DNA of 64,000 nt from a bacterium (GTDB lineage Bacteria > Zhuqueibacterota > Zhuqueibacteria > Residuimicrobiales > Krinioviventaceae). The notes beneath the pieces are model-generated. The model saw only the letters and a program-made list of their open reading frames with translations. It was not told the origin of the DNA and did not search any database. Shown piece by piece: positions 42,510 through 58,470 of the stretch (positions within the stretch are counted from its first letter, which is position 1; every line of letters starts with the position of its first letter). The position numbers and the translations under genes were made by a program. The DNA is taken from NCBI GenBank assembly GCA_963675755.2, contig CAXXMD010000001.1:326049-390048 (forward strand), read 5' to 3'.

Positions 42510-43895
42510 TTAGCGTATCAATGTCATTTTACGCATTGTTTTAATATTGTCTACATGTAATTCGTAATAATAGATTCCGCTTGCTACGGGGGATTGGTTT
42601 ACATCACAACCGTTCCACTCGATCTGGTATGAACCGGCGGCTTGCGTTTGATGGACCAGCGTATTGATTCGCTGTCCCATATTGTTGTAAACAGATAACT
42701 TTACTTTTGATTGCTGCGATATGGAATAACAGATTGTGGTGGTCGGATTAAAGGGGTTTGGATAGTTTTGAGATAACTCAAATGAACATGGAGTTTGGGT
42801 CTGTTGCTGTATCCCGGTAGGATCTCCCTCAATGGCTTCCAGAATGACCAGGTCTTTGGTTCCATTGCCTATTACATCAGATTCCCAGATGATAGTATCC
42901 TGTTGTACATCAAATTTTTGCACATGACCGTCACCACCCCATTCTTTCATAAAAGGCACCCATATCACATCCAGCGAGTTGTCATAATACAGGCGTTGCA
43001 GGTTGGGGCCAACCAGAATGGGATTTGATGCATCATGTAAAACCATACCGGTATTGGCATCGTAAGAACAGATATAACCATTCACACCATCGCCCCAGGC
43101 GGGGCAATAGCCTTTGCCATCAGCAGTAACCACAATATCTCCGGGAGTAAAGGGAGTGGTATGTTCAGCGTTATGCCAGCCAAAATCCACCGTATCCACA
43201 GCGGCGGGGGTGTTTTGATTGTCATCCGTATGCAGGTCAATAATCACCACAGAACCGGAAACCGTTGCATAATCACCGGTGCATACCACATTCAATCGCC
43301 CATCCGGAGCTATTGCAACATCCTGTGCATTGACAGGTGTGTTTACCGTATGGATTACCATGTCACTTTCCGAGTCAATTATGGAAACAGAAGATTGTTC
43401 ATATGGCATTCCCCAGCCGGCGTAACCGGTATTGGTCACAAATGCCTTGCCGTCTTTACAAAGAATCCCTTCAGGTGCTACACCCACTGATATCTCACCC
43501 GTTACCGAGCCGGTTGAGAGATCGATAATAGAAACCGTGTTGGCAACATAGTTTGTAACATAGGCTTTATCTGAATCCGGGAACGCGATAGCCCAGGGAT
43601 TACTGCCCTCAGCTAGTGCAATGGTTTGGATGACCTGGTTATTTTGCTGCGGATCAATAACCATAATATCATCAGTGCCTGAATTGACGATATAGATTAA
43701 ATCATTAAATGCCACTAGCTGATTTGGCATTTGTCCGGTTGTCACAATATTAGACTTGATACTGAAATCATCCATTGACATGATTGATACCGTTTCAGCG
43801 GATTCGTTCAGCGTGTAAAGTGTTCTCGGAATGTCTGCAAATGCGCAAGCGTAAATTAACAGAACCATAAACAACAGACATCTTTTGGGATACAT
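42510..43895 (-). CDS. YncE/BtuG-like beta-propeller with FlgD-Ig C-terminal domain; putative cobalamin-capture protein
   Basis: YVTN repeats (KAYVTNY..VSIIDL, VGVAPEG); NYPNPFNP tail; directly downstream of the riboswitch-controlled TonB receptor. Confidence 0.75.
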   Translation of the reverse strand: MYPKRCLLFMVLLIYACAFADIPRTLYTLNESAETVSIMSMDDFSIKSNIVTTGQMPNQLVAFNDLIYIVNSGTDDIMVIDPQQNNQVIQTIALAEGSNPWAIAFPDSDKAYVTNYVANTVSIIDLSTGSVTGEISVGVAPEGILCKDGKAFVTNTGYAGWGMPYEQSSVSIIDSESDMVIHTVNTPVNAQDVAIAPDGRLNVVCTGDYATVSGSVVIIDLHTDDNQNTPAAVDTVDFGWHNAEHTTPFTPGDIVVTADGKGYCPAWGDGVNGYICSYDANTGMVLHDASNPILVGPNLQRLYYDNSLDVIWVPFMKEWGGDGHVQKFDVQQDTIIWESDVIGNGTKDLVILEAIEGDPTGIQQQTQTPCSFELSQNYPNPFNPTTTICYSISQQSKVKLSVYNNMGQRINTLVHQTQAAGSYQIEWNGCDVNQSPVASGIYYYELHVDNIKTMRKMTLIR

Positions 43896-43914: not shown

Positions 43915-46194
43915 TTAATAGTTCACTACCAGACCCAATCGCCATTCCCGTCCGGGCATGGGCATGTCCCGAATGGTTTCATATCGGGTATTGGATATAT
44001 TGTAAATAGAAAATTTGAGTATCAGCGTTGTTTGACAGACTTGCCGGGTTATGGAACCATTCAGGTCCCACACCTCATAAGAATCCAGCCAGCGGGTATT
44101 GGCCTCATTCACAAATCGCTTACCTACCTGACGATAGTCTAAACCCAGTTCCGTATTGAAAAAATGACCTGCAAGGGTCCCTTTGAATGTATTCTGTGGA
44201 CGATAGGGGATGATCATATCGCGGGTAGTTAGATTGTCGCTTTTGTTGAACGGGTCCAGATCTGAGTAGCTGATATTGAAATGAAACCAGTCATTGGGCG
44301 TATCCATTGAAATCAGATATTCTGTGCCAGAGATTTCTGCATGGGTGTTGTATGGACTGAATACTTCAAAGCTCCCCAAACGCCAGACTATCAAATTGTC
44401 GATTTTGTTTTTAAACGTGCTGATTTCCATTCTCATGGAAAATGGAGTGAAAAGCTCAAATCCTGCACCCGCTTCGGTTTGAATACTTTTTTCGGGCAGC
44501 AAATCAGGATTCCCATCAATGCGAACGTCCTGATAAAACAGGTCCGCAAAAGTGGGTACCCGAAATGTGCGTGCATAACCGGATTTGATGTATATGCGTT
44601 TTTCGTTTCCCGCGGAAATGCGGCTATTAATAGCCGGGCCCCAATGTTTATCAATTCGTTCATCATCATAACCCGAACTGGTACTGTTGCGAATATCATA
44701 ACGCAGGGAAGGAGAGAGGCTCCAGTTTATCTGGTTACGGATTGGAATAATGATCTGTGGATTTATAAAAAATCCGTTTGCGGTTTCGTCCGCCTGTTGC
44801 TTTATGGGATTTAATACGGGCATCAGATTTTCATTATCGTATTGTTGTTTTCTGAATGTATGTCCTGTTGTGAAATCGAGCCAGGAAAAAGGACTTGTGT
44901 TGAATTCGCTGTTGACAATAGTTTGTTCCAGAATGTATTGATAATGATATTGCGGATAGCGTTTGTATTTCAGTTCTACATCATCCGGATACAGATTGCG
45001 GTTCTCGGTAACGGTTTCCATATATCTTGGTTGTATCTTGAGATTAAAGCGCTGGTGGTTCCATTGATAATCCATTCCCCAGCCGGTTTGATCATATTGA
45101 ATTCTTGCATAGGGAGTCCATCCGTCGATTTTTCCGGGTATACCTCGGTCAGAATCAAGATTTTGGTATTGTAATGCCAGATTGTGGTTTTTGATCTGAT
45201 ACCCGGTACGCAGAAACAGGTTTTGAGTTTCTATGTCTGCATTTATCCGGTCTTCCTTGATGGTCTGATGATCCGAATCTTTATATTCATATGGGTAATT
45301 GCCATCGTTACTATGATATTGATATGTTGCCAGATAGCTCCAATTTTTAATTTGACCTGAAACCGAAGGAGAGATGCTGTTGTATCCCCAGGCACCGGTA
45401 CGGTATTCCAGATGCAGGTTGTTTTGGATATCTTTGCGTGTGATGATATTTACAGCCCCGGCAAGTGCACCTGTACCAAATCGACTGGCGCTTGTACCCT
45501 TGTGGATTTCTATCTTTTCAATCATGTTAACCGGAACCATTGATAAATCGGCATCTCCACTGGATTGATTATTCAGGGGGACCCCATCCAGCAAAACCAA
45601 TACCTGGTTACTCTGGCTGCCACGGATAGATATTTTTTTCGCCCCGCTACCGCTTTCGTCTGTTATTTCAATTCCGGGTACCTGTGCAATTAACTCGGCG
45701 GCATTATCGGCAGTTTTGTTTGTTGTTTCATCTATGCGGATCGTCCAGACATCAATACCCGGTGAGTCGGTCCATTTTTCAGCATTAATATTAACATCCG
45801 GCATGGTTAGAATGCGGGGTACAAGCCGGATGTCTATTTGTGTGGCTTGATCTTTTAATACATGTAAATCATAACGGGTTTGTTTCTCATAGGCGATATG
45901 TTCAAATGTCAGAGAATAGGTACCTTCAAGCAGGTTCTTGATCTCAAAATGTCCCTGCCGATTGGTAATGGTGCCGGTCCCGCTGTTTTGAACAGATATA
46001 TTAACGCCTTGAACGGGCATGCCGGTTTCTGTATCGGTTACGGTACCCTGTAACTTGATGTCAGATTGGGAATAGAGATGTGTGGAAAATAACAATACCG
46101 CAATACATGCGAGAAATGTTATTTTGGAGAATAGTAATTTGAACAAGCAGAATACACATTTGTGTACCCTGATTGCAGGATTCACGGATTTCAA
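43915..46194 (-). CDS. TonB-dependent receptor, probable cobalamin transporter (BtuB-like)
   Basis: N-terminal carboxypeptidase-like domain; plug ISIRGS..QVLVLLDGVP; FRVPTFADLF, GNPDLLPE, PMPGREW; cobalamin riboswitch upstream. Confidence 0.88.
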   Translation of the reverse strand: MKSVNPAIRVHKCVFCLFKLLFSKITFLACIAVLLFSTHLYSQSDIKLQGTVTDTETGMPVQGVNISVQNSGTGTITNRQGHFEIKNLLEGTYSLTFEHIAYEKQTRYDLHVLKDQATQIDIRLVPRILTMPDVNINAEKWTDSPGIDVWTIRIDETTNKTADNAAELIAQVPGIEITDESGSGAKKISIRGSQSNQVLVLLDGVPLNNQSSGDADLSMVPVNMIEKIEIHKGTSASRFGTGALAGAVNIITRKDIQNNLHLEYRTGAWGYNSISPSVSGQIKNWSYLATYQYHSNDGNYPYEYKDSDHQTIKEDRINADIETQNLFLRTGYQIKNHNLALQYQNLDSDRGIPGKIDGWTPYARIQYDQTGWGMDYQWNHQRFNLKIQPRYMETVTENRNLYPDDVELKYKRYPQYHYQYILEQTIVNSEFNTSPFSWLDFTTGHTFRKQQYDNENLMPVLNPIKQQADETANGFFINPQIIIPIRNQINWSLSPSLRYDIRNSTSSGYDDERIDKHWGPAINSRISAGNEKRIYIKSGYARTFRVPTFADLFYQDVRIDGNPDLLPEKSIQTEAGAGFELFTPFSMRMEISTFKNKIDNLIVWRLGSFEVFSPYNTHAEISGTEYLISMDTPNDWFHFNISYSDLDPFNKSDNLTTRDMIIPYRPQNTFKGTLAGHFFNTELGLDYRQVGKRFVNEANTRWLDSYEVWDLNGSITRQVCQTTLILKFSIYNISNTRYETIRDMPMPGREWRLGLVVNY

Positions 46195-46261
46195 ACCTCA
46201 CCCTCGAAGGTTGAAAATGAAAGCAGAAAGGCTGTACTGCAAAATGGATTAGATCATGGCC

Positions 46262-46440
46262 TTTCCGACGGCAGGTCTCCTGGCTTGGATTTAATGCCTA
46301 CTTACCGCACCTTCCCACCTGAGGCTTGCAGGCAGTGGCTGGGTCTATAGACCGATTGCGGCTTTGGTTATCCTTACAGTAGCGGGGCTGCAACGGATTT
46401 GCACCGTTTTCCCTATTATCCCATTCGGGCACCGTTATGT
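46262..46440 (-). ncRNA. Cobalamin riboswitch
   Basis: Minus strand reads CGGTGCCC..AATAGGGAAAACGGTGCAAATCCGTTGCAGCCCCGCTACTGTAA..GCCACTG..GGGAAGG..AAGCCAGGAGACCTGCC (B12 box). Confidence 0.95.
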
Positions 46441-46583
46441 CGAATTAATGTAGTTATTTTTTTCAATAATGCAAATGTTTTAAATTTGCAGCAGGGTAGA
46501 AATTGTTTGATAAAAGTAATATAATTACTATCTTGTTTATCCTGTTATTAATTAATCTGTTAAATTAGATTTCTAGAGAAGAT

Positions 46584-46784
46584 ATGGAAAAAGAAAACCA
46601 GATTACCCCCGAATCGATAATTCCCAATGTTGAAAATCGTTCTTTTGATTCATTTGAATCCTTTTACAAGAGTATTCCTTATGAGGGTTCGCTGGGAATA
46701 CTTGCGTTAGGAGCAATGGGCGTGATGGCCTGGCGAAAAAAACGCGCGGAAATGGATGACAAAAAATCTCATGAGGAGAGTTGA
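46584..46784 (+). CDS. 66-aa peptide with a PEP-CTERM-like TM helix and basic tail
   Basis: IPYEGSLGILALGAMGVMAWRKKR; stop overlaps the next ATG (TGATG at 46782-86). Confidence 0.75.
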   Translation: MEKENQITPESIIPNVENRSFDSFESFYKSIPYEGSLGILALGAMGVMAWRKKRAEMDDKKSHEES

Positions 46785-48793
46785 TGGGTAAACGACTTGC
46801 CAAAAAGGTATTGCTGATTGGATGGGACGCTGCGGACTGGAAGATTATTAATCCTTTGATGGATAACGGGCAAATGCCTGCACTGGAGAGTCTGGTGAAC
46901 AATGGCGTAATGGGAAATTTAGCCACCCTTGATCCACCCATGTCGCCCATGCTATGGACTTCTATTGCAACCGGCAAGCATGCGGACAAGCATGGCATAT
47001 TGAATTTTACCGAACCTTCTCCGCAATCTGCCGGTATACGACCGGTTTCAGTGTCCTCACGTAAAGTAAAAGCCATTTGGAATATTTTAACTCAGGAAAA
47101 CTATAAAACCCATGTGGTTGGCTGGTGGCCCAGTCATCCCGCTGAGCCGATCAATGGGACCTGTGTCTCTAACTTTTATCAGCGCGCGCATGCTCCCATA
47201 GATAAACCCTGGCCCATGCGCCCGGGTACCGTGCATCCCAAAGCTAAAGAAAAGCTGTTTGATCAACTGCGCGTACACCCGCAGGAACTAACGGCTGCGC
47301 ATATTCTTCCATTTGTTCCGGATGCCGCGAAAATTGATCAGGAAAAAGACAAGCGATTGGAATCCCTAGCTAAAATAATTGCGGATTGTTCAAGCATCCA
47401 TTCTGCAGCAACATGGATACTGGAGAATGAAGAATGGGATTTTATGGCGGTTTATTATGACGCCATTGATCATTTTTGTCATGGATTTATGAATTTTCAC
47501 CCACCACGCATGCCGCATGTTCCTGAGGATTTATTTGAGCTTTACAAAGGTGTTGTGACAGGTGGTTATCTTTTTCATGATATGATGTTATCACGTTTGT
47601 TACAGCTAGCTGGTGATGATGTGACGGTTATACTGGTTTCTGATCATGGTTTTCACTCGGACCATTTACGTCCGTTGTCAATACCCAAAGAACCCGCGGG
47701 ACCGGCATGGCAGCACCGTCCTTATGGTGTTGTATGTATGAAAGGCCCAAACATACAACAGGATGAAAGGATTTACGGTGCAAACCTGCTGGATATTACC
47801 CCAACACTTTTAACATTGTTTGGTCTGCCTATTGGCAATGATATGGATGGCAAGCCGCTGGTACAATCTTTTGATAAACTGGTTGAACCTGAATACATAC
47901 CTACATGGGAAAAGGTCAAAGGTGAATGCGGAATGCTGCCTGAAAATGTGCAGCAAGACCCCTATGCGGAACAGGAAGCCATGGAACAGCTTATTGCTTT
48001 GGGTTATGTTGAAAAACCGGGAGATGACCAGCAAAAAGCCATTGAACAGACATTAAACGAATCCCAGTTTTATCTTGCACGGGTATACATGAACAAGAAT
48101 TTGTATCATGAGGCTTTGCCGGTGCTTGAAAAATTGTATGAAAAACATTCCGATCAGACCCGCTTTGCTTTTCATCTTGCAAAATGTTACCAGGTACTGG
48201 GTAAAAATATAAGCGCACGCAAGGTCATAGAAAAAGTGATAGCCGATAAAGAAAAATACAGTCCTCAATTTGATTTGTTATTAGGTTCATTAGCTTTGGC
48301 TGATAAAGATTACCAAACTGCGCTTGAATTATTGTTAAAAGCTGAAAAAGCACAGCCACGCCTGCCTTTGTTGCATCAGCAGATCGGACAAACCTACCTG
48401 AAAATGGGCAAGCTTGAATATGCTGAACGTGCATATACCAAAGCTCTCGAGATCGATCCCGACAGTCATATTGCCCATGATGGAATTGCCATCGTCTGTT
48501 TGCGTCAGCGCCGTAACGAAGAAGCAGCATCCTTTGCATTAAATGCCATTGGTTTAATCTATCATTATCCTATTGCGCATTATCATTTGGGACTGGCATT
48601 AACTCGTCTGGAAATGTATGAACGCGCGGCAGAAGCATTTGAGGTCAGTGCTGTGATTGTACCGGGATTTAAAAGTGCACATAGAATGCTGAAATACCTG
48701 TATCAACGCAAACTGAATATGAGCGATAAAGCGGCAAAGCACCAGGTTATTCTTGATGAGATCAATGCTAAACAGGCGGAGAAATTTTTATGA
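46784..48793 (+). CDS. Alkaline-phosphatase-superfamily (type I phosphodiesterase/NPP-like) protein with C-terminal TPRs
   Basis: LIGWDAADW, SPMLWTSIATG, DHFCH, VSDHGF, LIALGYV, then TPR repeats; no signal peptide. Confidence 0.88.
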   Translation: MGKRLAKKVLLIGWDAADWKIINPLMDNGQMPALESLVNNGVMGNLATLDPPMSPMLWTSIATGKHADKHGILNFTEPSPQSAGIRPVSVSSRKVKAIWNILTQENYKTHVVGWWPSHPAEPINGTCVSNFYQRAHAPIDKPWPMRPGTVHPKAKEKLFDQLRVHPQELTAAHILPFVPDAAKIDQEKDKRLESLAKIIADCSSIHSAATWILENEEWDFMAVYYDAIDHFCHGFMNFHPPRMPHVPEDLFELYKGVVTGGYLFHDMMLSRLLQLAGDDVTVILVSDHGFHSDHLRPLSIPKEPAGPAWQHRPYGVVCMKGPNIQQDERIYGANLLDITPTLLTLFGLPIGNDMDGKPLVQSFDKLVEPEYIPTWEKVKGECGMLPENVQQDPYAEQEAMEQLIALGYVEKPGDDQQKAIEQTLNESQFYLARVYMNKNLYHEALPVLEKLYEKHSDQTRFAFHLAKCYQVLGKNISARKVIEKVIADKEKYSPQFDLLLGSLALADKDYQTALELLLKAEKAQPRLPLLHQQIGQTYLKMGKLEYAERAYTKALEIDPDSHIAHDGIAIVCLRQRRNEEAASFALNAIGLIYHYPIAHYHLGLALTRLEMYERAAEAFEVSAVIVPGFKSAHRMLKYLYQRKLNMSDKAAKHQVILDEINAKQAEKFL

Positions 48794-49353
48794 TAACGAT
48801 TATTTCAGGTTTGCCCCGTTCAGGTACCTCATTGATGATGCAAATGCTTGAAAAAGGGGGGATGGACGTATTAACCGATGGAAAGCGCCAGGCAGATGAG
48901 AATAATCAGCGCGGTTACTATGAATATGAAAAAGTAAAAAGTCTTCGTACAGATAATAAATGGTTAATAGACCATGATGGCAAAGCAGTCAAGATCATTG
49001 CCCAGTTGCTGCCGTATGTACCCACAAAAGTGGAATTTAAAGTTATATATATGGTACGCCCCATTGAAGAGGTGATCCGGTCACAAAGGAAAATGATTAA
49101 AAACCTTGGTAATCAGGGCGCAAGCCTGAGTGATGCGGATTTGACCAAAGTTTTTTCGGTGCAAACCAACCGTGTACAAACCTGGTTAGCGATGAACAAG
49201 GTTGATTGTTTGTTTATGTTTTTTCCGGAAATTCTACATAATCCACTTGAAAAAGCCAATGAAATTTGTTCATTCCTGGGTACAAAATTAAATACGGATT
49301 TGATGGCCACAGTTGTGGATAAACGCTTGTGGCACGAAAAAAGTCAGTTGTAA
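48790..49353 (+). CDS. PAPS-dependent sulfotransferase-domain protein
   Basis: 5'-PSB loop SGLPRSGTSLMM; 3'-PB motif YMVRPIEEVIRS; ATGA overlap with the upstream gene. Confidence 0.85.
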   Translation: MITIISGLPRSGTSLMMQMLEKGGMDVLTDGKRQADENNQRGYYEYEKVKSLRTDNKWLIDHDGKAVKIIAQLLPYVPTKVEFKVIYMVRPIEEVIRSQRKMIKNLGNQGASLSDADLTKVFSVQTNRVQTWLAMNKVDCLFMFFPEILHNPLEKANEICSFLGTKLNTDLMATVVDKRLWHEKSQL

Positions 49354-49475
49354 AATTATCAATCATGAAATAGTGTAGTTTGGTCTTAATTAGTCAAGTT
49401 GCTTGTAGGTAAAAGCATCCTGAATTACCAAATTGTCTGCAATGATAGTATCCAAAAATTATAAAGAGGGTTGTA

Positions 49476-50669
49476 ATGAAATTTGATAAAAATAAAAGTC
49501 TGGAAAAACGATTGTTTGGGTATGCTGCGCTTGCCGGTACTGTGATAACTGCAGGGCCAACAGCACAGGCTGCTGTCATTAAAACGGACCCTGCTGACCA
49601 AACTGGATTAAAGACGATTAATGTTGACTTTAATAATGATCTTACAAATGATCTCATTATTAGGGCCGGTCAACAATCTGGAGTTGCAAGGTCAGACATT
49701 CGGATAGAAAATGCCACCGGTCAGGTATTGGGACAAACTTATTCAACTAGTTACACATGGAACTGGTATGCATCTCCATTGAATCTTAATAGTACAATAG
49801 GGGCTTCAAAAGCATTTCCCCCAGAATGGAAAGCACAGTTGTTAATGTATTCTAATCGCGGCTTTTGGTCCGGTGTGAACGAGAAATATGTAGGTGTTAA
49901 ATTCAAAATAGGCGAAAATACCCATTATGGATGGATAAAAATTTCTTGTTCTACTTATGATGCCTCTTCATCTTATTATACTTTATCTCTTTATGAATAT
50001 GCTTACGAGAGCACTCCCGGTGAGTCAATTAAAGCAGGCGCCGATGCCTCATTGCCTGTAGAACTTTCTTCTTTTACAGCAGTACCTGAGAATGGAGCAG
50101 TGAATTTGAGCTGGACCACCCAGAACGAGATCGATAACCTGGGCTTTATGCTCGAACGTCGATTAAAAGAAGAGTCCGACTGGGAGACCATTGCCAGTTA
50201 TAAAACCCATGTTGAACTTGCTGGGCAGGGTAACAAGAACAGTCCCACGAATTACCATTTTGCCGACAGTAACGTCTTCTCCGGCAACACCTATATTTAT
50301 CGCTTGTCAGATTTAGATGTGAACGGTGAAATTCATTCCAAACAAGAGATACAGGTAAAAGCATCCGATACGGTTGTGCCTGAATCAACAGAACTGTCTT
50401 CCGCTTTTCCTAATCCCTTCAACCCTTTCAATCCCGGTACCAGGGTACAGTATCAACTCGAGACGGATGTAAAAGTGACATTAAGCGTTGTTGACATTAC
50501 CGGGAGGACTGTCCGAACAATTGTCAATGAGAACCAGCCGGCGGGTCGTTATGAAATTGCATGGGACGGTAAAGATAGTTACGGAAATTCAACTCCCAGT
50601 GGAGTATATCTGCTGGTACTTAAAGCCGGCAACCTCACCAAGACCCACAAAGTGACGCGTCTGCGTTAA
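49476..50669 (+). CDS. Secreted HYGW-domain protein with Ig-like and FlgD-Ig C-terminal domains (paralog 1)
   Basis: Leader KRLFGYAALAG..AQA; YVGVKF..THYGWI..YAYE; LPVELSSF; PNPFNPFNP tail. Confidence 0.8.
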   Translation: MKFDKNKSLEKRLFGYAALAGTVITAGPTAQAAVIKTDPADQTGLKTINVDFNNDLTNDLIIRAGQQSGVARSDIRIENATGQVLGQTYSTSYTWNWYASPLNLNSTIGASKAFPPEWKAQLLMYSNRGFWSGVNEKYVGVKFKIGENTHYGWIKISCSTYDASSSYYTLSLYEYAYESTPGESIKAGADASLPVELSSFTAVPENGAVNLSWTTQNEIDNLGFMLERRLKEESDWETIASYKTHVELAGQGNKNSPTNYHFADSNVFSGNTYIYRLSDLDVNGEIHSKQEIQVKASDTVVPESTELSSAFPNPFNPFNPGTRVQYQLETDVKVTLSVVDITGRTVRTIVNENQPAGRYEIAWDGKDSYGNSTPSGVYLLVLKAGNLTKTHKVTRLR

Positions 50670-50689
50670 TTCATTCTGCAAAATTATGC

Positions 50690-50727
50690 CATGACCAGGA
50701 TAGGTAGAGTCCTGGTCATGTTTTTTT
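50690..50727 (+). terminator. Intrinsic terminator
   Basis: CATGACCAGGA...TCCTGGTCATG followed by a T-run. Confidence 0.75.
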
Positions 50728-50765
50728 CTCCAATTAATTATTGTGAATTATATTCAATAAAATCC

Positions 50766-50794
50766 TTGCATTATAATGTAATAATTTCTATAAT
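50766..50794 (+). promoter_or_regulatory. Sigma70-like promoter of paralog 2
   Basis: TTGCAT-N17-TATAAT; AAGGAGG RBS before ATG 50836. Confidence 0.6.
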
Positions 50795-50835
50795 ATTAGA
50801 TACATATGAAATGAAAATTTCAAGGAGGGAGTTCG

Positions 50836-51996
50836 ATGAAACCGCAATTGGATAAACGGATTGCAGGGTATTCTGCATTGGCAGCAGCAATGTTAACAGG
50901 AGCTCAGGGTAAGGCTGAAGTATTAAAATATAATTCAGGTGCAGTTTTAAATGAAGGCGGGGATTTTGTTAATATCGATTTTGATCAGGTAGGCGGAGAT
51001 GGTAATGATATTATGATTTCTTGCACTACATATCCCGGTCCTATTTTTTATGCACAGCATTTTGATTATGCCAATAGCGGTGCATTTTTAGGAAATATGG
51101 CAGGTTCTTCAATTATGTTTCCATTTGCATTGGAAGCAAGCAATAGTATTCCTGTTACCGGTGCCTGGAATTTAAATACATATAACACTTATGCTCAGGG
51201 CACTCTGAATGTTTTCAGTGGTTTTGCCGGCCATTGGAATAATAAATTTAACAAGTACATGGGTGTCAGATTTGATATCAGCGGTGCAACACATTACGGA
51301 TGGGTAAAAATGTCTTGTAACGGCCCTACCCTTACCATACATCAATTCGCTTATGAGACCAATGCTGATGCCGGTATTGATGCACCTTTGCCGGTAAAGT
51401 TGTCTTTATTCACTGCAGAGCCTGAAAAAGGTGGTATCAGTATTTCATGGACCACCCAAAGTGAAGAAGACAACCTCGGGTTTACTTTGGAACGTCGTCT
51501 TGATTCCGAAACCGAATGGACTCCCATTGCCAGTTATAAAACCGATGACGCATTAAAAGGGCAGGGTACCAGCACAAATGAAACAGAGTATCAATTCCAG
51601 GATAATGATGTTTTTGTCGGTAATACCTATCATTACCGTTTAACGGATGTTGATGTGAACGGCTATTCCAATTTTAGCAAAGTAATCCAGGTCGATGCCA
51701 CAAATCTGGTTGCACCCAGTGAAACTGAACTGATTTCTGCATATCCAAATCCTTTTAATCCGGGCACTACAATACAATACAAGCTTGAATCAGATCATTT
51801 TGTATCGCTGAGCGTGGTTGACATAACCGGACGAACGGTTCGTACGTTAGTCAAAGAAAACCAGCAAGCGGGCCAATATTCTTTTGCATGGGATGGAAAC
51901 GATAATACTGGCAATTCATCTCCCAGTGGTATTTATATGCTGGTGCTCAAGGCCGGCAATCTAGTCCGTACTCAAAAAGTGACTCGTTTAAGATAG
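50836..51996 (+). CDS. Secreted HYGW-domain protein with Ig-like and FlgD-Ig C-terminal domains (paralog 2)
   Basis: Leader KRIAGYSALAAA..GKA; YMGVRF..THYGWV..FAYE; LPVKLSLF; YPNPFNP tail. Confidence 0.8.
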   Translation: MKPQLDKRIAGYSALAAAMLTGAQGKAEVLKYNSGAVLNEGGDFVNIDFDQVGGDGNDIMISCTTYPGPIFYAQHFDYANSGAFLGNMAGSSIMFPFALEASNSIPVTGAWNLNTYNTYAQGTLNVFSGFAGHWNNKFNKYMGVRFDISGATHYGWVKMSCNGPTLTIHQFAYETNADAGIDAPLPVKLSLFTAEPEKGGISISWTTQSEEDNLGFTLERRLDSETEWTPIASYKTDDALKGQGTSTNETEYQFQDNDVFVGNTYHYRLTDVDVNGYSNFSKVIQVDATNLVAPSETELISAYPNPFNPGTTIQYKLESDHFVSLSVVDITGRTVRTLVKENQQAGQYSFAWDGNDNTGNSSPSGIYMLVLKAGNLVRTQKVTRLR

Positions 51997-52002
51997 TTTT
52001 TT

Positions 52003-52031
52003 AAAAAAGCCCAATTTTTTGGGCTTTTTTT
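52003..52031. terminator. Intrinsic terminator
   Basis: AAAAAAGCCCAA-TTTT-TTGGGCTTTTTT. Confidence 0.8.
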
Positions 52032-52175: not shown

Positions 52176-55073
52176 ATGCCAGATAGACCGTCATATCTCA
52201 GACCATTTATATTGAACATTCTTTTCCCCGCTTTGTTGACAATAATCCTTTTTGTTGTATCTATATTTGTAATTATTATACCTTCTCTTGAAAAAAACCT
52301 TCTTGATAAAAAGCGTGAAATGATCTGTGAACTTTCCAATTCTGCATGGAGTTTGTTGGAATCTTTTCATCAGCAACAGTTAAATAATGAAATTACATTT
52401 GAAAAAGCACAAGAAGAAGCCATTGCCGCTGTTAGTGCTTTGCGCTATGGTGAAGAAAATAAGGACTATTTTTGGATAACGGATATGCGTCCCTATATGG
52501 TTGTGCATCCGTATCGTAGTGATCTTGACGGTAAAGACCTGAATAATTTTAAAGATCCGAATGGAAAAAAGCTGTTTGTAGAATTTGCACGCACGGTTAA
52601 AGAACAGGGCAGCGGTTATATAGATTACTGGTGGCAGTGGAAAGATGATTCTACACGCATAGTTCCTAAATTATCATATGTACGTGGTTTTGAACCCTGG
52701 GATTGGATCGTTGGGACTGGTATTTATATAGAAGATGTAAGAATTGAAATAAACAGAATTACCAGACGATTAATTCATCTTTCTTTTTCCATTATTGTTA
52801 TTATATCGCTCATTCTTGCATATATTGCACGTCAGACATTCAGAATTGAAAAACAGAAACAGATTGCTGAATTTGAACTTGCAGAATCTAAAGAAAAATA
52901 TAAATCTCTTGTTGAAGCTTCGACCGAAGGTACACTGATGGTTATGGAGTTTCGGATCATTTTTGCAAATAGTACAATACAAAACTTGCTTGGATTTAGT
53001 GAAAAGGAATTGACAGATTTTTCACTGGATGAATTGGTAAAATTGGGTAAAAATGATGATGATTTATTCTCTTCTTTGTTGACCAAAGATGAACTTGAAG
53101 AACAATATGAAGCCGGTTTTTTTAAAAAAGATGGCTCAATGCTTGAAACGTTGATCTCTATTTCACATATAGATATTTTTGGCAAAGAAGGATTTATTAT
53201 AGTAGCCAAAGATATTAGCAGCCATAAAAAAATTCAGGAAGAACTGGGTGAAAGCAAACAAAAGTTTCAGGTGCTGACTGAAACAATCAATATGGGGGTT
53301 TTCAGGGTTTTATTGGGAAAAAAACCTCATTTTACTGAATTAAATTCTGCAGGCACCCGCATATTGGGAATTAATGAGCAGGATATCACTACTATATCTT
53401 TAACTGAATTTTTCCAGGATCCTAATGAAGCTGAAATATTTAGTAATACTTTATTAAATATGGGCAATATTAAAGAACGTGTTGTCAGTATTAAAAGACG
53501 AGATGGAAAATCAATTTATTTGTCAATCTCTGCAATTGTGATTAAAGACGATGATCATAATGAAAAATTTGTTGATGGAATTTTTGAGGACATCTCTGAA
53601 TTTAAAAAAACAGAAATGGTTCGGGAAGAGATAATATCCGAATTGAATACATCACTATTGTATCTGAATCAACCAGTTAAACATTTTGCACAATTTTATC
53701 CCAAAATTCCTATGCATCAATCCATACGGAATGCTGCGCTGGATATGAAAAAGAATCTGGCGAGTGCAGCTTTGGTTATTTCCGAAATGGGAGATGTTAT
53801 TGGAATTGTAACAATTGATGATTTGTGGAAGCGTGTGATATGTAATGAAAAAAAACTTTCTGATCCGGTTTTTGAGATCATGTCAGCACCTGTACAGACA
53901 ATTTCCGAAAATTCTCTTATCTTTGAAGCACTTTTGGTCATGCAGCAACGGTCTATAAGACATCTGCCACTTGCCGATATTAATGGCAATATTAACAGTA
54001 TGATCACAAACAAAGAAATAATCCAAATTCAACAATTCTCTACCGGATTGTTATTACATGAAATTCAGAATTGTAAAAATATTGAAGACCTGATTGATAA
54101 AAGTAAAACGCTACATGGTGTTGTTAAAAATTTAATTGAAAATGGAGTTCGGATTTCGACAATTACAAGGATTATCAGTTCATTTAGTGATGCTGTTTCT
54201 GTCAAGTGCATCGAGTTTGCTTTACAGTCGCAGGGGACGCCTCCATGTGATTTTGCATTTATTGTGATGGGCAGCCAGGGACGTGAAGAACAAACATTGT
54301 CTACAGATCAGGATAATATTATTATTTTTGAACAGACTGACCAACCCGTACAAGATTATTTTATTGGTCTTGCAGAAAAGATCAATACCTGGTTAGATCA
54401 GGCCGGATATCAATTCTGTAAGGGTGATGTGATGGCCAAAAACCCCAAGTGGTGTGCAAGTATAAATCAATGGAAACAGTATTTCAGCCATTGGATACAT
54501 GATGCAGATCCACAGGATTTGATTGATATTAGTATTTTCTTTGATTTTAGATTTTTATTTGGGAAACAAAAATTATCTAATGAATTACGTGATCATGTAT
54601 TAGAAACTTCAAAAGGTAAAGCCGCCTTTTTTAATCATTTGGCCAAGAATGCATTATTGGTTAAACCCCCATTAAATTTAATGGGGAATATTTCTACAAA
54701 ATCATCAGGGGATGAACAGATAGAGGGTTTTGATGTTAAACATGCATTGTTACCTATTGTTGATTTTTGCAGGATATATACATTACAGAATGGAATACGA
54801 GTAACGAATACTTTACAAAGATTGTCCGAATTAAAAGATAGAGAAGTAATTAATATTTCAACATTTGAAGAGATTGTTGAATGTTATGAATACCTGATGC
54901 TTCTCCGATTTAAACATCAGGTTAATGATTTGCAGAAAAATCGTATACCGGATAATATTATCAATCCTAAACGTCTTACACAAATTGAACAGCACACACT
55001 GAAAAAGATTTTCATACAAATAAATAGTTTCCAGAAAAAAATGAGTTATGATTTTACTGGTGTAGCATCTTAG
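52176..55073 (+). CDS. Membrane sensor: Cache, 2 PAS, CBS pair and DUF294 nucleotidyltransferase-like domain
   Basis: TM-LRYG..DYFWI..MVVHP..KDPNGK..KLSYVRGFEPWDWIVGTGIY-TM (sCache_2-like); PAS; CBS (IRHLP); MGSQGREEQTLSTDQDN, CKGDVMAKNPKW, IFFDFR. Confidence 0.85.
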   Translation: MPDRPSYLRPFILNILFPALLTIILFVVSIFVIIIPSLEKNLLDKKREMICELSNSAWSLLESFHQQQLNNEITFEKAQEEAIAAVSALRYGEENKDYFWITDMRPYMVVHPYRSDLDGKDLNNFKDPNGKKLFVEFARTVKEQGSGYIDYWWQWKDDSTRIVPKLSYVRGFEPWDWIVGTGIYIEDVRIEINRITRRLIHLSFSIIVIISLILAYIARQTFRIEKQKQIAEFELAESKEKYKSLVEASTEGTLMVMEFRIIFANSTIQNLLGFSEKELTDFSLDELVKLGKNDDDLFSSLLTKDELEEQYEAGFFKKDGSMLETLISISHIDIFGKEGFIIVAKDISSHKKIQEELGESKQKFQVLTETINMGVFRVLLGKKPHFTELNSAGTRILGINEQDITTISLTEFFQDPNEAEIFSNTLLNMGNIKERVVSIKRRDGKSIYLSISAIVIKDDDHNEKFVDGIFEDISEFKKTEMVREEIISELNTSLLYLNQPVKHFAQFYPKIPMHQSIRNAALDMKKNLASAALVISEMGDVIGIVTIDDLWKRVICNEKKLSDPVFEIMSAPVQTISENSLIFEALLVMQQRSIRHLPLADINGNINSMITNKEIIQIQQFSTGLLLHEIQNCKNIEDLIDKSKTLHGVVKNLIENGVRISTITRIISSFSDAVSVKCIEFALQSQGTPPCDFAFIVMGSQGREEQTLSTDQDNIIIFEQTDQPVQDYFIGLAEKINTWLDQAGYQFCKGDVMAKNPKWCASINQWKQYFSHWIHDADPQDLIDISIFFDFRFLFGKQKLSNELRDHVLETSKGKAAFFNHLAKNALLVKPPLNLMGNISTKSSGDEQIEGFDVKHALLPIVDFCRIYTLQNGIRVTNTLQRLSELKDREVINISTFEEIVECYEYLMLLRFKHQVNDLQKNRIPDNIINPKRLTQIEQHTLKKIFIQINSFQKKMSYDFTGVAS

Positions 55074-56071: not shown

Positions 56072-56770
56072 ATGGTAAATCCAAAATTCAAGGTGAATTT
56101 TTTCAAACCGCATACTGATCATGCCAAAGCCAATATGAGATTAATTATATTGTTAGCAATTATATGGGCTGTTTGTGTATTCGGATTTCAGTTTTTGTTG
56201 ATAGCATTTAATAAACCAGTTCCGGAAGCGAACTATCTAAAGTTTCAGCAGATTTGGCCCAATATACAGACCAGTCAGGCTGATGCTGATATTACAAGGA
56301 ATTTTACTAAAATTACCATGGCCGTATTGGGTAAGAATATTGCTTTAAAGGCTCCACACAAAGCTGTATTGGACGAAACATTGTCTACGTTGTTATTGAA
56401 ATTGTTACCAGAAGATCAAAAAGAAGCTTTTGCAAATGATCCACTAGAATACCTCAACAATAATGATCTTCATTCGGTGTTGGGTTTGGAAAAATCCGGA
56501 TTCGACAAATTGATGTATGATTTATTACCTACCTCGCTGGTTAAGGTTGACAACGCTGAATTGTCACCCCAAATTATCAAAGAATTGCCGGGTATAATGG
56601 AGCTCTATCTTGTCCATAACCGCAGTTTTCTAACGGATTCAAAATTCCTCGGATTTCCGTTTCATTATTGGTATACCGCACAGTTTTTACTCATCTTGTT
56701 TGTAGGCTTGTGCTGTATCTATGCGATCTATATTGATAGGCTCAATAAAAAATATGACTTTCCAGATTAA
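56072..56770 (+). CDS. DUF4212-type small symporter subunit with a large insertion
   Basis: N-terminal TM (IIWAVCVFGF) and C-terminal FLGFPFHYWYTAQ..YAIYIDRLNKKY; directly upstream of the SSS transporter. Confidence 0.7.
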   Translation: MVNPKFKVNFFKPHTDHAKANMRLIILLAIIWAVCVFGFQFLLIAFNKPVPEANYLKFQQIWPNIQTSQADADITRNFTKITMAVLGKNIALKAPHKAVLDETLSTLLLKLLPEDQKEAFANDPLEYLNNNDLHSVLGLEKSGFDKLMYDLLPTSLVKVDNAELSPQIIKELPGIMELYLVHNRSFLTDSKFLGFPFHYWYTAQFLLILFVGLCCIYAIYIDRLNKKYDFPD

Positions 56771-56790
56771 TCCAAACTTGGGAGAATCCA

Positions 56791-58470
56791 ATGCTGCGAA
56801 AAATATACTTTATGTTAATGATTTCATTATTTTCAGCTGTCTTGCCGGTTTGGGCTGAAGCTTCCAGCGCTGTGAAACTGGAAGGCGATTTTAAAGTTGG
56901 ACCTGCAATTATTCTTATAGTAATTTTAATTACATTTATTATGGTTGGTTTGTTTAACAGAGCCAAAGATACCTCAACCTATTGGGCCGCCGGCAGAAAA
57001 ATTTCCCCCGTTGGTGCCGGAATGGCCATTGCTTCAAACTGGATGAGTGCGGCTTCCTTTCTTGGAATGGCTGCAATTATGTATGGCTCTGGTTATCATG
57101 GTTTATCATACGTTGTTGGTTGGACAGGTGGTTATGTGTTACTGTTGATCCTGATGGCGGGGCAAATCAGACGATATGGTAAATATACTGCTGCTGACTT
57201 TATTGGAGACCGTTATTATTCAAAAGGGTTACGTGGATTTGGTGCCTGTCTTGCAATATTTATCTCTTTTTCATATTGTGTAGGCCAGTTTGCCGGTATT
57301 GGTATAATGTTTAAATGGGTTATGGGTATTGATTATACCTGGGCTGTTCTTATTGGTGCTTCGGTAGTGCTTGCATATACTCTGATTTCCGGTATGTTGG
57401 GTGTAACCAAAAATATGCAGATTCAATATGTGATCATTATCGTTTCCTTTATGATTCCGCTTTTTATTCTAACTTACAAATACGGTTATTTCTGGCTTGT
57501 ACCTCAGGTTGGTTACGGTAATGTAGTTTCAGATGTTGTAAATGGCCTGCCACCTGGAAAAGGGCTGTCAGTAATGGGGCATGATTTTGGGATCTTGCCT
57601 TCACCAGAATTTGCAATGCCCTGGGATCCTGCAACCGGGCAAACTGCATTTCAATGGATTGCAATTTGTTTTTCACTGATGATTGGCACGGCAGGTTTAC
57701 CTCATGTTATTCAACGTTTCTATGTTGTGCCCCGGGCCCGTGATGCTCGCTGGTCTGTTGTTTGGGGATTGTTTTTTATCTGTTTACTCTATTGGAGTGC
57801 CCCTGTATATTCTGCATTCGGAAAGATTTTATCATCAAACCCGGAAGTCGGTGCGTTAGCTAAAGACGCAATTGTTGTATATACGGCACAACTTGGTGCT
57901 GTTTTTCCATTAATTGTAGGTTTACTTGCCGCTGGTGCTATATCGGCTGCTTTTTCTACAGTTTCGGGATTGTTGGTTGCAGGTGCTTCGGCATTTTCTC
58001 ATGACCTTTATTATCGTGTGATTAATCCAAAAGCAACTGAACATACTCAGATGTTAATGGCCAGAATTGGTACAATTCTTATGGCTGTGTCTGTTGCAAT
58101 TGTCGCATTGTTAAAGCTGGGTTTAATAGCTCAATTGGTTGCAATTGCATTTTCTCTTGCCGGTTGTACTATTTTTCCTTTGTTTCTGTTAGGAATCTGG
58201 TGGAGTGGATCAAACAGAAAAGGCGCCTGGGCTGGATTAATTGCGGGTACTATAGTTTCACTTGTTGCAATTGTTAATTTTATTGTAAGCAAGTATGGTG
58301 GTCAGCTACCGGGGCAGGAAATGATCAGTTATTACCTGAATGCCTGGTATTTTGCATGGTTGGGTGCACCTTTGGCAATTATTACCAATATTGTAGTATC
58401 TTTATTAACAAAATCCAAAACTCCGGCAGAAATTGAACAGTTTCTTGCTGAAAATGTACATAATTATTAA
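56791..58470 (+). CDS. Sodium:solute symporter, cation/acetate symporter ActP-like
   Basis: GMAIASNWMSAASFLG, YGKYT, GTAGLPHVIQRF, AAFSTVSGLL, HDLYY, LGIWW. Confidence 0.88.
   Translation: MLRKIYFMLMISLFSAVLPVWAEASSAVKLEGDFKVGPAIILIVILITFIMVGLFNRAKDTSTYWAAGRKISPVGAGMAIASNWMSAASFLGMAAIMYGSGYHGLSYVVGWTGGYVLLLILMAGQIRRYGKYTAADFIGDRYYSKGLRGFGACLAIFISFSYCVGQFAGIGIMFKWVMGIDYTWAVLIGASVVLAYTLISGMLGVTKNMQIQYVIIIVSFMIPLFILTYKYGYFWLVPQVGYGNVVSDVVNGLPPGKGLSVMGHDFGILPSPEFAMPWDPATGQTAFQWIAICFSLMIGTAGLPHVIQRFYVVPRARDARWSVVWGLFFICLLYWSAPVYSAFGKILSSNPEVGALAKDAIVVYTAQLGAVFPLIVGLLAAGAISAAFSTVSGLLVAGASAFSHDLYYRVINPKATEHTQMLMARIGTILMAVSVAIVALLKLGLIAQLVAIAFSLAGCTIFPLFLLGIWWSGSNRKGAWAGLIAGTIVSLVAIVNFIVSKYGGQLPGQEMISYYLNAWYFAWLGAPLAIITNIVVSLLTKSKTPAEIEQFLAENVHNY

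Follow-up and report, generated by a model that had tools for sequence, protein, structure and literature searches.

A stretch of 64,000 nucleotides (the window) from contig CAXXMD010000001.1 of the Krinioviventaceae assembly GCA_963675755.2 (Zhuqueibacterota) carries, at positions 46584-51996, five co-oriented genes encoding a mini-peptide, an enzyme that joins an alkaline phosphatase (AlkP)-fold domain to tetratricopeptide repeats (TPRs), a sulfotransferase, and two paralogous secreted proteins termed HYGW1 and HYGW2 after a shared sequence block. These genes belong to a widespread, undescribed bacterial gene set, and it is moderately probable that they represent one instance of a cassette conserved across phyla, in which the enzyme has a peptide-docking groove and the HYGW proteins are its likely clients. 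The genes and their parts, including the domains for secretion by the type IX system (T9SS), are as follows:

46584-46784, plus strand: gene for the 66-residue mini-peptide.
46784-48793, plus strand: gene for the AlkP-TPR enzyme, 669 residues counted from the ATG.
46784-47998, plus strand: alkaline-phosphatase-fold domain of the enzyme, of the nucleotide pyrophosphatase/phosphodiesterase (NPP)/PafA type, residues 1-405, including a helical insertion at about residues 153-276.
48029-48787, plus strand: TPR superhelix of the enzyme, residues about 416-668, about seven repeats.
48790-49353, plus strand: gene for the sulfotransferase, 187 residues, its start overlapping the AlkP-TPR stop (ATGA).
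49476-50669, plus strand: gene for HYGW1, 397 residues; leader and HYGW domain at nucleotides 49503-50048, a module of about 100 residues before the C-terminal domain (CTD), and a T9SS type A CTD at 50406-50654.
50836-51996, plus strand: gene for HYGW2, the 386-residue paralogue of HYGW1; leader and HYGW domain at nucleotides 50851-51384, T9SS CTD at 51742-51981.

A first-pass annotation of the window had described five open reading frames (ORFs), two stop/start overlaps, and a leader and HYGW..AYE domain common to the two secreted proteins, all of which are confirmed in the sequence. By direct reading, the stop codon of the peptide gene overlaps the ATG of the enzyme gene within TGATG at 46782-46786, and the enzyme stop overlaps the sulfotransferase ATG within ATGA at 48790-48793. 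The enzyme start given here is the ATG where homologues begin; the start reported by the ORF lister is a TTG at 46781.

A pattern scan taking one genome per species confirmed at least 555 loci, such that AlkP-TPR orthologues occur in no fewer than 555 genomes, one per species, of bacteria living in soil and water; 80 of these loci were kept for neighbourhood counts, the enzyme being a single ORF in 77 of the 80. The earlier suggestion that the peptide, the sulfotransferase (or a fusion to it) and HYGW proteins accompany AlkP-TPR homologues proved strongly positive. The mini-peptide is encoded upstream of the enzyme in 42 of the 80 loci, a sulfotransferase is fused to the enzyme in 43 and adjacent to it in 11 of the 77 loci with a one-ORF enzyme, and a hidden Markov model (HMM) of the HYGW N-terminal domain matched 97 ORFs in 54 of the 80 loci, mostly 100 nucleotides or less from the enzyme gene and often in arrays of up to seven copies. 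This enrichment supports the proposal of a dedicated conserved module for which no characterised counterpart was named. Of that earlier reading as a whole, the conserved dedicated module and the candidate nucleophile of the enzyme are upheld, and the membrane anchor, the TPR binding site and the linkage to cysC/cysDN are not borne out.

Genome-wide counts point in the same direction. In its own 6.48-Mb genome the N-terminal region of about 180 residues of the HYGW proteins is found in these two adjacent genes only, and in five other genomes, each with one enzyme orthologue, the locus of that enzyme holds 17 of the 22 HYGW copies, giving 19 of 24 over six genomes with the window's own two of two. 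The gene set recurs with otherwise unrelated flanks in Bacteroidota, Acidobacteriota, Planctomycetota, Nitrospirota, Lentisphaeria, Thiotrichaceae and Hydrogenophilales. With the HYGW N-terminal domain confined to two adjacent genes and the set recurring across phyla, the five-gene arrangement is far beyond chance. It could be argued that the genes are neighbours by chance or by lineage-specific synteny with no functional link, given the 26 of 80 loci without a HYGW gene in the fetched flanks and the 21 of 77 without a nearby sulfotransferase; the recurrence of the set over many phyla with unrelated flanks, the existence of four kinds of fusion (see below) and the 19 of 24 HYGW copies at the enzyme locus make this extremely improbable, and it is already contradicted by the fusions and the genome-wide HYGW counts.

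All-against-all clustering of the ORFs in the 80 loci, with Pfam searches on 18 cluster representatives and on single neighbours, yielded as further conserved neighbours only lineage-specific synteny (for example L17/RpoA, GldN, a fatty-acid hydroxylase and a peptidase of family M20). The 80 neighbourhoods have no conserved gene for a kinase, glycosyltransferase, protease, exporter/transporter or polysaccharide function and no conserved cys gene. Relatives bear no more specific database name than 'alkaline phosphatase family protein', 'sulfotransferase family protein', 'PEP-CTERM ... protein' or 'hypothetical protein', the window proteins are nameless, and a search of the ESM Atlas returned only unnamed 'hypothetical' clusters. 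No paper on the gene set was found in a literature search that covered the accessible parts of articles.

The AlkP-TPR enzyme matches PF01663 at 91.2 bits (cut-off 23) over residues 10-292, as well as TPR families (Pfam scan). In the structure model, with a predicted local distance difference test score (pLDDT) of 78.2, helices occupy residues 416-668 and the first beta-strand begins already at residue 8, such that the protein lacks a signal peptide and is predicted to be cytoplasmic, in agreement with its earlier description as a signal-less AlkP-fold protein with TPRs. Alignment of the AlkP domain with VIA-align placed it nearest to PafA (5too; Z 23.9, root-mean-square deviation (rmsd) 3.6, 311 residues aligned), ENPP7 (Z 23.0) and Xac NPP (Z 22.7), with ENPP1 also among the closest structures and sulfatases behind at Z 20-22. 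The TPR part matched consensus TPR, O-GlcNAc transferase (OGT) and SPINDLY TPRs in Foldseek (E 4e-12 to 1e-8) and MamA in VIA-align (Z 22.5). Whole-protein profile and Foldseek searches were dominated by TPR matches; a single-sequence search of the Protein Data Bank (PDB) with the AlkP domain returned chance-level matches alone and no solved relative by sequence. Homologues of the enzyme number in the thousands, with 48-94% identity, and are spread over many phyla.

The nucleophile of AlkP-fold enzymes sits where a helix begins immediately behind a beta-strand. In the model S54, within the SPMLW sequence singled out in the first-pass annotation as the likely nucleophile, opens a helix (54-63) that follows a beta-strand (42-47), and it is one of seven residues (S54, P55, W58, S60, D287, H288 and H311) identical in 77 of 77 orthologues, with D15, D18, H230 and H294 conserved in 97%. 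On this basis S54 is the candidate nucleophile and the Asp and His residues are candidate metal ligands, roles assigned from position and not from superposition. Mean identity among the 77 orthologues is 65% for the AlkP domain vs 40% for the TPRs. Assignment as a formylglycine sulfatase of the PF00884 type was rejected, the motif at the nucleophile of such enzymes being C/S-x-P-x-R and not S-P-M-L-W; PF00884 scores 31.7 bits, yet no single stretch passes. As a separate observation, two Acidobacteriota genomes each hold, away from the cassette, a pair of distant AlkP-domain paralogues (G002:C9:613707-617278 and G005:C9:133439-136895) in ORFs of 669-770 residues with 30-33% identity over the first 80 residues, a second branch of the family.

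The 187-residue protein scores above the cut-offs of both PF13469 (42.2 bits, cut-off 27) and PF00685 (37.5 bits, cut-off 22), in keeping with its earlier identification as a sulfotransferase using 3'-phosphoadenosine 5'-phosphosulfate (PAPS), and by these matches it is assigned as a minimal PAPS-type sulfotransferase. P9, R10, S11, G12, T13, S14, R90 and S98 are invariant among 32 sequences; we take P9-S14 to be the 5'-phosphosulfate loop and R90..S98 the Arg..Ser pair for the 3'-phosphate. Against the PDB the family profile found cytosolic sulfotransferases best (E 1.2e-6) and aligned with TPST1/2 over positions 2-21 only, that is, the P-loop (E 0.005-0.017); a single-sequence PDB search gave no matches. 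Among the 120 enzyme homologues listed, 54 are 843-941 residues long and carry PF13469/PF00685, their extra C-terminal domain aligning with the separate sulfotransferase of the window. Among the 77 loci, in addition to the fused and adjacent cases, the sulfotransferase lies elsewhere in the locus in two and none was seen in 21, mostly Acidobacteriota but including L001 and L002, the nearest relatives of the window. Because these 21 loci lack a nearby sulfotransferase, it is regarded as a frequent but dispensable partner and the AlkP-TPR protein as the core. A supply of PAPS is possible, since an adenosine 5'-phosphosulfate (APS) kinase gene is present in the window's own genome; it sits elsewhere in that genome, and the cysC or cysDN linkage that had been anticipated was not found.

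HYGW1 and HYGW2 are 47% identical over their full length (N-terminal domain alone, E 5e-12), which bears out their description as paralogues with a common leader and Y.G..F, HYGW and AYE blocks. Both end in a feature that the first-pass annotation had left unnamed, a TIGR04183 T9SS type A domain (36.6 and 41.4 bits, cut-off 23), and the genome has two matches to PorU, the T9SS sortase, at 884 and 877 bits (cut-off 420). With a sorting domain above its cut-off and PorU in the genome, HYGW1 and HYGW2 are assigned by profile matching as T9SS type A cargo. The two full-length PorU matches lie in tandem (C3:1311408-1314653 and C3:1315665-1318919). The C-terminal 210 or so residues of HYGW1 and HYGW2 are common to more than 60 ORFs of the genome: a module of about 100 residues (LP..LS.F.A......I.L.W.T..E.DNLGF.LER...), for which a Pfam scan gave no confident name, occurs there together with the CTD at 30-47% identity (50043-50666 and 51378-51993 in the window).

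The N-terminal domain of the HYGW proteins has no Pfam or NCBIfam model. Its leader, K.L..Y[SA]..A, is kept across phyla, with the Tyr invariant in 29 sequences, and is followed by [QE][IV][IV]YT, D.N.DG..DF, G.W, YLG..F, HYGW and YAYE....I.AG; the His of HYGW varies among family members. The domain was modelled as all-beta (pLDDT 83.3). Foldseek found nothing at E of 0.001 or below with this model, and in VIA-align the six best matches were DUF4466 and HmuY-like chains (Z 5.2-6.0, rmsd 3.4-4.6, 111-120 residues aligned), a range the tool rates as common for unrelated folds, with the next match at Z 3.9. At 50% identity the family comprises 18,265 representatives at E of 0.001 or below and 2,066 at 1e-30 or below, mostly of 220-300 residues. 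A profile search also found HYGW repeats in giant proteins of 1284-3498 residues, and in a Thiotrichaceae locus (L082, 9285-12947) a 1220-residue ORF downstream of the enzyme has a HYGW-like block in its middle (YGFVHVEV ... GWAYDDTGA), behind which come long repeats rich in Pro and Thr; by eye alone, the N-terminal part of this ORF resembles a reverse-transcriptase or intron-type insertion.

The C-termini of HYGW proteins differ between lineages. In Bacteroidota and in the window they are T9SS domains. In Planctomycetota, Solibacter and Hydrogenophilales they pass the PEP-CTERM cut-off (L048, L060, L078 and L079 in both Pfam and NCBIfam, L069 in Pfam only), a Nitrospirae locus has IPTL-CTERM, and Terriglobales have an unmodelled tail, ATLGMLARG..AL..WRQ. 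Exosortases are present in the Acidobacteriota and Planctomycetota genomes that were checked, and the window's own genome (98% complete) has no match to exosortase PF09721.

The mini-peptide is assigned as a real, conserved gene from its recurrence and alignment. A BLASTP match lies directly upstream of the enzyme in 34 of the 80 loci, raised by a motif HMM to the 42 given above (38 of the 42 Bacteroidota loci, L001-L003 and one Lentisphaeria locus), and a Thiotrichaceae locus likewise carries the peptide. The conserved motif spans residues 31-56 (nucleotides 46674-46751), with the family consensus IP.EGSLGLLALGA.G..AWR.KR; in an alignment of 37 members G35, L40, G43 and W50 are invariant and the N- and C-terminal parts variable. 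A scan of Pfam and NCBIfam found no family model for the peptide and no PEP-CTERM (TIGR02595/PF07589) match, its sole library match being a sub-threshold one to PTPA-CTERM (18.2 bits, cut-off 29). Peptides of the window clade have Y/F flanked by D/E right before the motif; across the family as a whole the residues preceding the motif vary, and the Tyr is missing in most Bacteroidota. In one Bacteroidota locus (L042; peptide at 671-847) a predicted AAA-ATPase/PD-(D/E)XK gene (889-2487; PF09820, PF08011) lies between the peptide and enzyme genes and appears to be an insertion into an otherwise tight pair.

The first-pass annotation had labelled the peptide transmembrane (TM) and proposed it as a membrane anchor. 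The label is doubtful: on a simple hydropathy scale, used here in place of a TM predictor, the maximum over 19 residues is 1.32 for the window peptide, with a median of 1.2 for the family and only three of 37 peptides reaching the usual TM value of 1.6. A charged residue falls within the 16-residue G..W core in 28 of 37, the Terriglobales tails score 0.3-0.9 and have an Arg inside the 'hydrophobic' stretch, and in fused forms the hydrophobic run covers about 9-13 residues before charged residues follow. The proposal had also placed the binding site of the peptide on the TPRs. A complex model of enzyme and peptide (alignments A1 and A2) places it instead on helices inserted in the AlkP domain, peptide residues 32, 34-38, 40-45 and 47-48 contacting enzyme residues 161-176, 199-214 and 264-271. 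The interaction prediction score from aligned errors (ipSAE) was 0.84 (runs 0.82, 0.84 and 0.85), with the best of three controls at 0.07, at least 87% of contacts in common between runs and a partner pLDDT of at least 70. Of 80 solved complexes 58 reach this mark, as do 2 of 110 mismatched pairs; both figures are only rough here because the analysis used its own alignments. Several contact residues are near-invariant (T210 100%, P176 95%, A208, M267 and M268 92%, H206 90%), and the predicted contacts of the peptide include none of the conserved active-site candidates. The modelled interface supports binding of the peptide to the enzyme without demonstrating it. Co-evolution across the interface was considered and set aside: changes in Acidobacteriota (H173A, S203C, R271T and others) parallel a different tail motif, and ancestry alone may explain them.

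These data bear on a proposal that the peptide spans the inner membrane and tethers there an enzyme that sulfates or phospho-modifies a lipid-linked glycan, lipopolysaccharide (LPS) or exopolysaccharide, to which the HYGW proteins would subsequently bind or become joined. Anionic LPS is the attachment site of T9SS cargo. The motif does resemble C-terminal sorting signals, as seen in the weak PTPA-CTERM match and in the PEP-CTERM or IPTL-CTERM found at the same position in the HYGW proteins of relatives, and a basic cluster follows the hydrophobic stretch of the peptide. Against this, hydropathy is under the TM value in 34 of 37 peptides, charges lie in the core and the fused runs are short, the model buries the motif in the AlkP groove, and the genes conserved around the cassette include none for a glycosyltransferase or for polysaccharide. 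Such tethering is very unlikely, and the peptide is probably not a membrane anchor, as judged from its composition and the complex model.

A further line of evidence is provided by where the helix is encoded. Among the 54 loci with HYGW genes, the free peptide is present in 28 and absent from two where the HYGW C-terminus is of T9SS type, present in none and absent from 19 where it is of tail type, and present in three and absent from two where it is unclear. One of the two T9SS-type loci without a peptide has just 560 nucleotides of upstream flank, the three unclear loci with a peptide have T9SS-like endings, and the two without are broken Acidobacteriota genes. The free peptide is thus seen only where HYGW proteins bear a T9SS domain rather than a PEP-CTERM-like tail, the tail being supplied in trans in the first case and in cis in the second.

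The same motif is also found fused to other members of the set. It precedes the enzyme in P0039 (on a Dehalococcoidia contig), P0085 and P0172, and full tail-AlkP-TPR-sulfotransferase chains were read in P0188 and P0174. It lies at the N-terminus of the sulfotransferase in P0130, P0180 (Rubrivirga sp. IMCC45206 according to its source) and the Rubricoccaceae locus L134, where the order is tail-sulfotransferase, AlkP-TPR, HYGW-T9SS. A HYGW C-terminal tail fits the mini-peptide consensus in P0165 and grades into an annotated PEP-CTERM in P0176. Among 69 longer proteins matching the peptide profile, 35 match the sulfotransferase family only and represent the form with the tail at the sulfotransferase N-terminus, four match AlkP and 15 PEP-CTERM, and 15 have no family. 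Because lineages supply the same helix free, fused or as a HYGW tail, the mini-peptide is best regarded as a docking or completing subunit and not as an anchor.

A short conserved ORF translationally coupled to an enzyme could also encode a substrate, in the manner of peptides synthesised on ribosomes and modified after translation (RiPPs): the docking motif would be a recognition sequence, the N-terminal segment of the peptide or the segment next to the tail would be sulfated or phospho-modified, and the HYGW proteins would be binding, export or receptor partners. The motif does stand beside a variable segment (acidic with Tyr in the window clade, Ser/Thr-rich elsewhere), as would fit recognition, and RaxX/RaxST is a reported precedent for cytoplasmic sulfation of a peptide (PMC6637879). 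However, neither protease nor exporter is conserved in the 80 neighbourhoods, the segment before the motif is unconserved and mostly without Tyr in Bacteroidota, fusion of the motif to the enzyme or the sulfotransferase suits a subunit better than a released product, and the model brings no peptide residue to the active-site candidates, making this quite unlikely.

In the reading favoured here, the core would be a cytoplasmic, catalytically competent NPP-type domain for phospho-transfer or hydrolysis, joined to TPRs and partnered by a PAPS sulfotransferase. The groove formed by the helical insertion of the AlkP domain would take up the PEP-CTERM-like amphipathic helix (P.EGSLGLLALG..G..AWR.KR) and would have to be filled, the helix coming, according to lineage, from a free mini-peptide (the window, Bacteroidota, Lentisphaeria, Thiotrichaceae), from an N-terminal fusion to the enzyme or the sulfotransferase, or from the tail of a HYGW protein. 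The HYGW proteins would be secreted beta-sandwich clients with an unusually conserved leader, bearing the surface-sorting signal of their own lineage. Their own tail, or one provided in trans, would let the enzyme capture them while still in the cytoplasm, ahead of Sec export, and the TPRs would perhaps read the leader. Modification by the phospho- and sulfo-transfer domains would follow, sulfation being one candidate outcome, and then display at the cell surface.

A more specific and tentative form of this idea, itself possible but doubtful, is that a PEP-CTERM-type tail, so far regarded solely as a signal for membrane sorting by exosortases, is read in the cytoplasm by an AlkP-fold groove throughout the bacteria, and that the enzyme, its TPRs and the sulfotransferase place phospho- or sulfo-groups on the 18,265-representative family ahead of export. 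In lineages whose HYGW proteins changed over to T9SS, the tail would then have survived as a separate mini-gene, the enzyme being unable to function in its absence.

Several points weigh against the HYGW proteins as clients of a docking enzyme. HYGW genes are absent from the fetched flanks of the 26 loci mentioned above, eight of which are Acidobacteriota loci where each flank extends for 4.6 kb or more, and five of 22 HYGW copies in the five other genomes lie away from the enzyme. Judged from gene content, sulfation cannot be the core function when 21 of 77 loci, L001 and L002 included, have no sulfotransferase nearby. The cis/trans complementarity largely tracks phylogeny (Bacteroidota vs Acidobacteriota), independent support for the split being limited to a handful of lineages (unclassified, Lentisphaeria vs Planctomycetota, Nitrospirae, Hydrogenophilales). 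The modelled complex rests on the model's own confidence, with alignments built in the analysis, and its whole interface is no more conserved than the AlkP domain (mean identity 0.59 vs 0.65). Where a lineage has canonical PEP-CTERM tails together with exosortases, sorting may be the only role of the tail. Finally, a cytoplasmic enzyme acting on proteins exported by Sec and T9SS would have to act before export, a step that we infer.

The intramolecular fusions of tail and enzyme would also be expected if the tail helix were an integral piece of an enzyme acting on a small molecule or glycan, with the HYGW proteins not being substrates but acting outside the cell, under shared regulation, to bind the product or make use of it. 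The higher conservation of the AlkP domain than of the TPRs (65% vs 40%) is as in metabolic enzymes, the sulfotransferase profile is nearest to small-molecule cytosolic sulfotransferases, and the HYGW fold is weakly like the ligand-binding HmuY-like proteins (Z 5.2-6.0). Nevertheless a small-molecule or glycan substrate leaves unexplained both the HYGW C-terminal tail, found exactly where the free peptide is missing, and the invariant Tyr of the HYGW leader, and TPR superhelices of the OGT/SPINDLY type usually hold peptides; it is considered unlikely.

The mini-peptide gene is taken to open a new transcription unit, since an opposite-strand riboswitch and then an AT-rich spacer lie upstream of it. 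The candidate transcription signals are:

46497-46525, plus strand: promoter-like site, TAGAAA-17-TATAAT, 10/12, in the AT-rich spacer between the minus-strand cobalamin riboswitch and the peptide gene.
50690-50720, plus strand: terminator-like hairpin with T-run after HYGW1, 12 pairs, 6 GC.
52003-52030, plus strand: terminator-like hairpin with T-run after HYGW2, at the end of the cassette, 12 pairs, 4 GC.

The promoter-like site is a weak candidate for the start of the unit, graded so because promoter-like sites in the region are not above shuffled sequence (16 vs a mean of 18.1). Terminator-like sites are likewise no commoner in the region than in shuffles, and the scan for them found none between the sulfotransferase and HYGW1 genes.

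The flanking genes are of a different kind. Upstream, on the minus strand, the cobalamin riboswitch (46253-46451, 104.8 bits) precedes a TonB-dependent receptor with a B12/haem-receptor profile (43915-46194) and then a YncE-like beta-propeller with a T9SS C-terminal domain (42510-43895), which together resemble an uptake unit under B12 control whose partner is a secreted propeller. Downstream, on the plus strand, lies a gene (52176-55073) for a 965-residue sensor protein with sCache, two PAS, a CBS pair, and a DUF294 nucleotidyltransferase with its substrate-binding domain, adjoined by a small membrane ORF and a 559-residue multi-pass membrane ORF (region 56072-58470), both judged from translation alone, the larger resembling a solute transporter. 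These downstream genes recur in none of the related loci and are unrelated to the cassette.

Of the cassette's four component families, two have no Pfam or NCBIfam model, namely the HYGW domain and the docking peptide. If HYGW proteins are indeed clients of the enzyme, a function would be given to very many 'hypothetical' surface proteins of Acidobacteriota and Bacteroidota, PEP-CTERM-like tails would have a cytoplasmic reader, and the cassette could be the first bacterial route for sulfating or phospho-modifying Sec/T9SS cargo. The cis/trans pattern of the tail and the natural fusions make this directly testable by simple binding and mass spectrometry.

Among known systems, a RiPP cluster was rejected as a counterpart of the cassette: a short ORF does stand beside enzymes, but across the 80 neighbourhoods neither a protease family nor a transporter family recurs as a conserved member. 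For RaxX/RaxST in Xanthomonas, a system of tyrosine sulfation of a secreted peptide, a sulfotransferase gene is reported beside a short precursor-like ORF whose product leaves the cell (PMC6637879), and the cassette is alike in encoding a PAPS-type sulfotransferase beside a short ORF. It differs in having no exporter of the RaxA/RaxB type and no protease, in the AlkP-TPR core being present even without the sulfotransferase, and in lacking a conserved Tyr in the motif. With the HmuY-like/DUF4466 proteins of Bacteroidota the HYGW domain shares a beta-sandwich likeness at Z 5.2-6.0 (5.2-5.9 for the haem-binding HmuY-like proteins), common for unrelated folds, and the His of HYGW, the one His that recurs, is variable.

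The PEP-CTERM/exosortase system (TIGR02595, PF07589, PF09721) is alike in that HYGW tails of relatives pass its cut-offs and the mini-peptide motif grades into them (P0165, P0176). In contrast, the window peptide is below every sorting-domain cut-off, its own genome is without an exosortase, and the predicted reader is a cytoplasmic AlkP-fold protein and not a membrane transpeptidase. HYGW1 and HYGW2 are like T9SS type A cargo in having the C-terminal domain above cut-off with PorU in the genome, but their N-terminal domain is tied to the enzyme and not to T9SS, other lineages using PEP-CTERM or IPTL-CTERM tails. With OGT and SPINDLY the enzyme shares the logic of a TPR superhelix joined to a group-transfer enzyme, though the catalytic domains are an AlkP fold and a sulfotransferase, the modelled peptide contact lies off the TPRs, and the substrate would, by inference, be a protein. 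The cassette enzyme resembles the NPP/PafA branch (PF01663) in fold (Z 22-24), Pfam family, the Ser at the start of a helix and the invariant Asp/His candidates, and differs from it in its predicted cytoplasmic location, its joining to TPRs and a sulfotransferase, and an inserted helical segment into which a peptide helix is predicted to fit.

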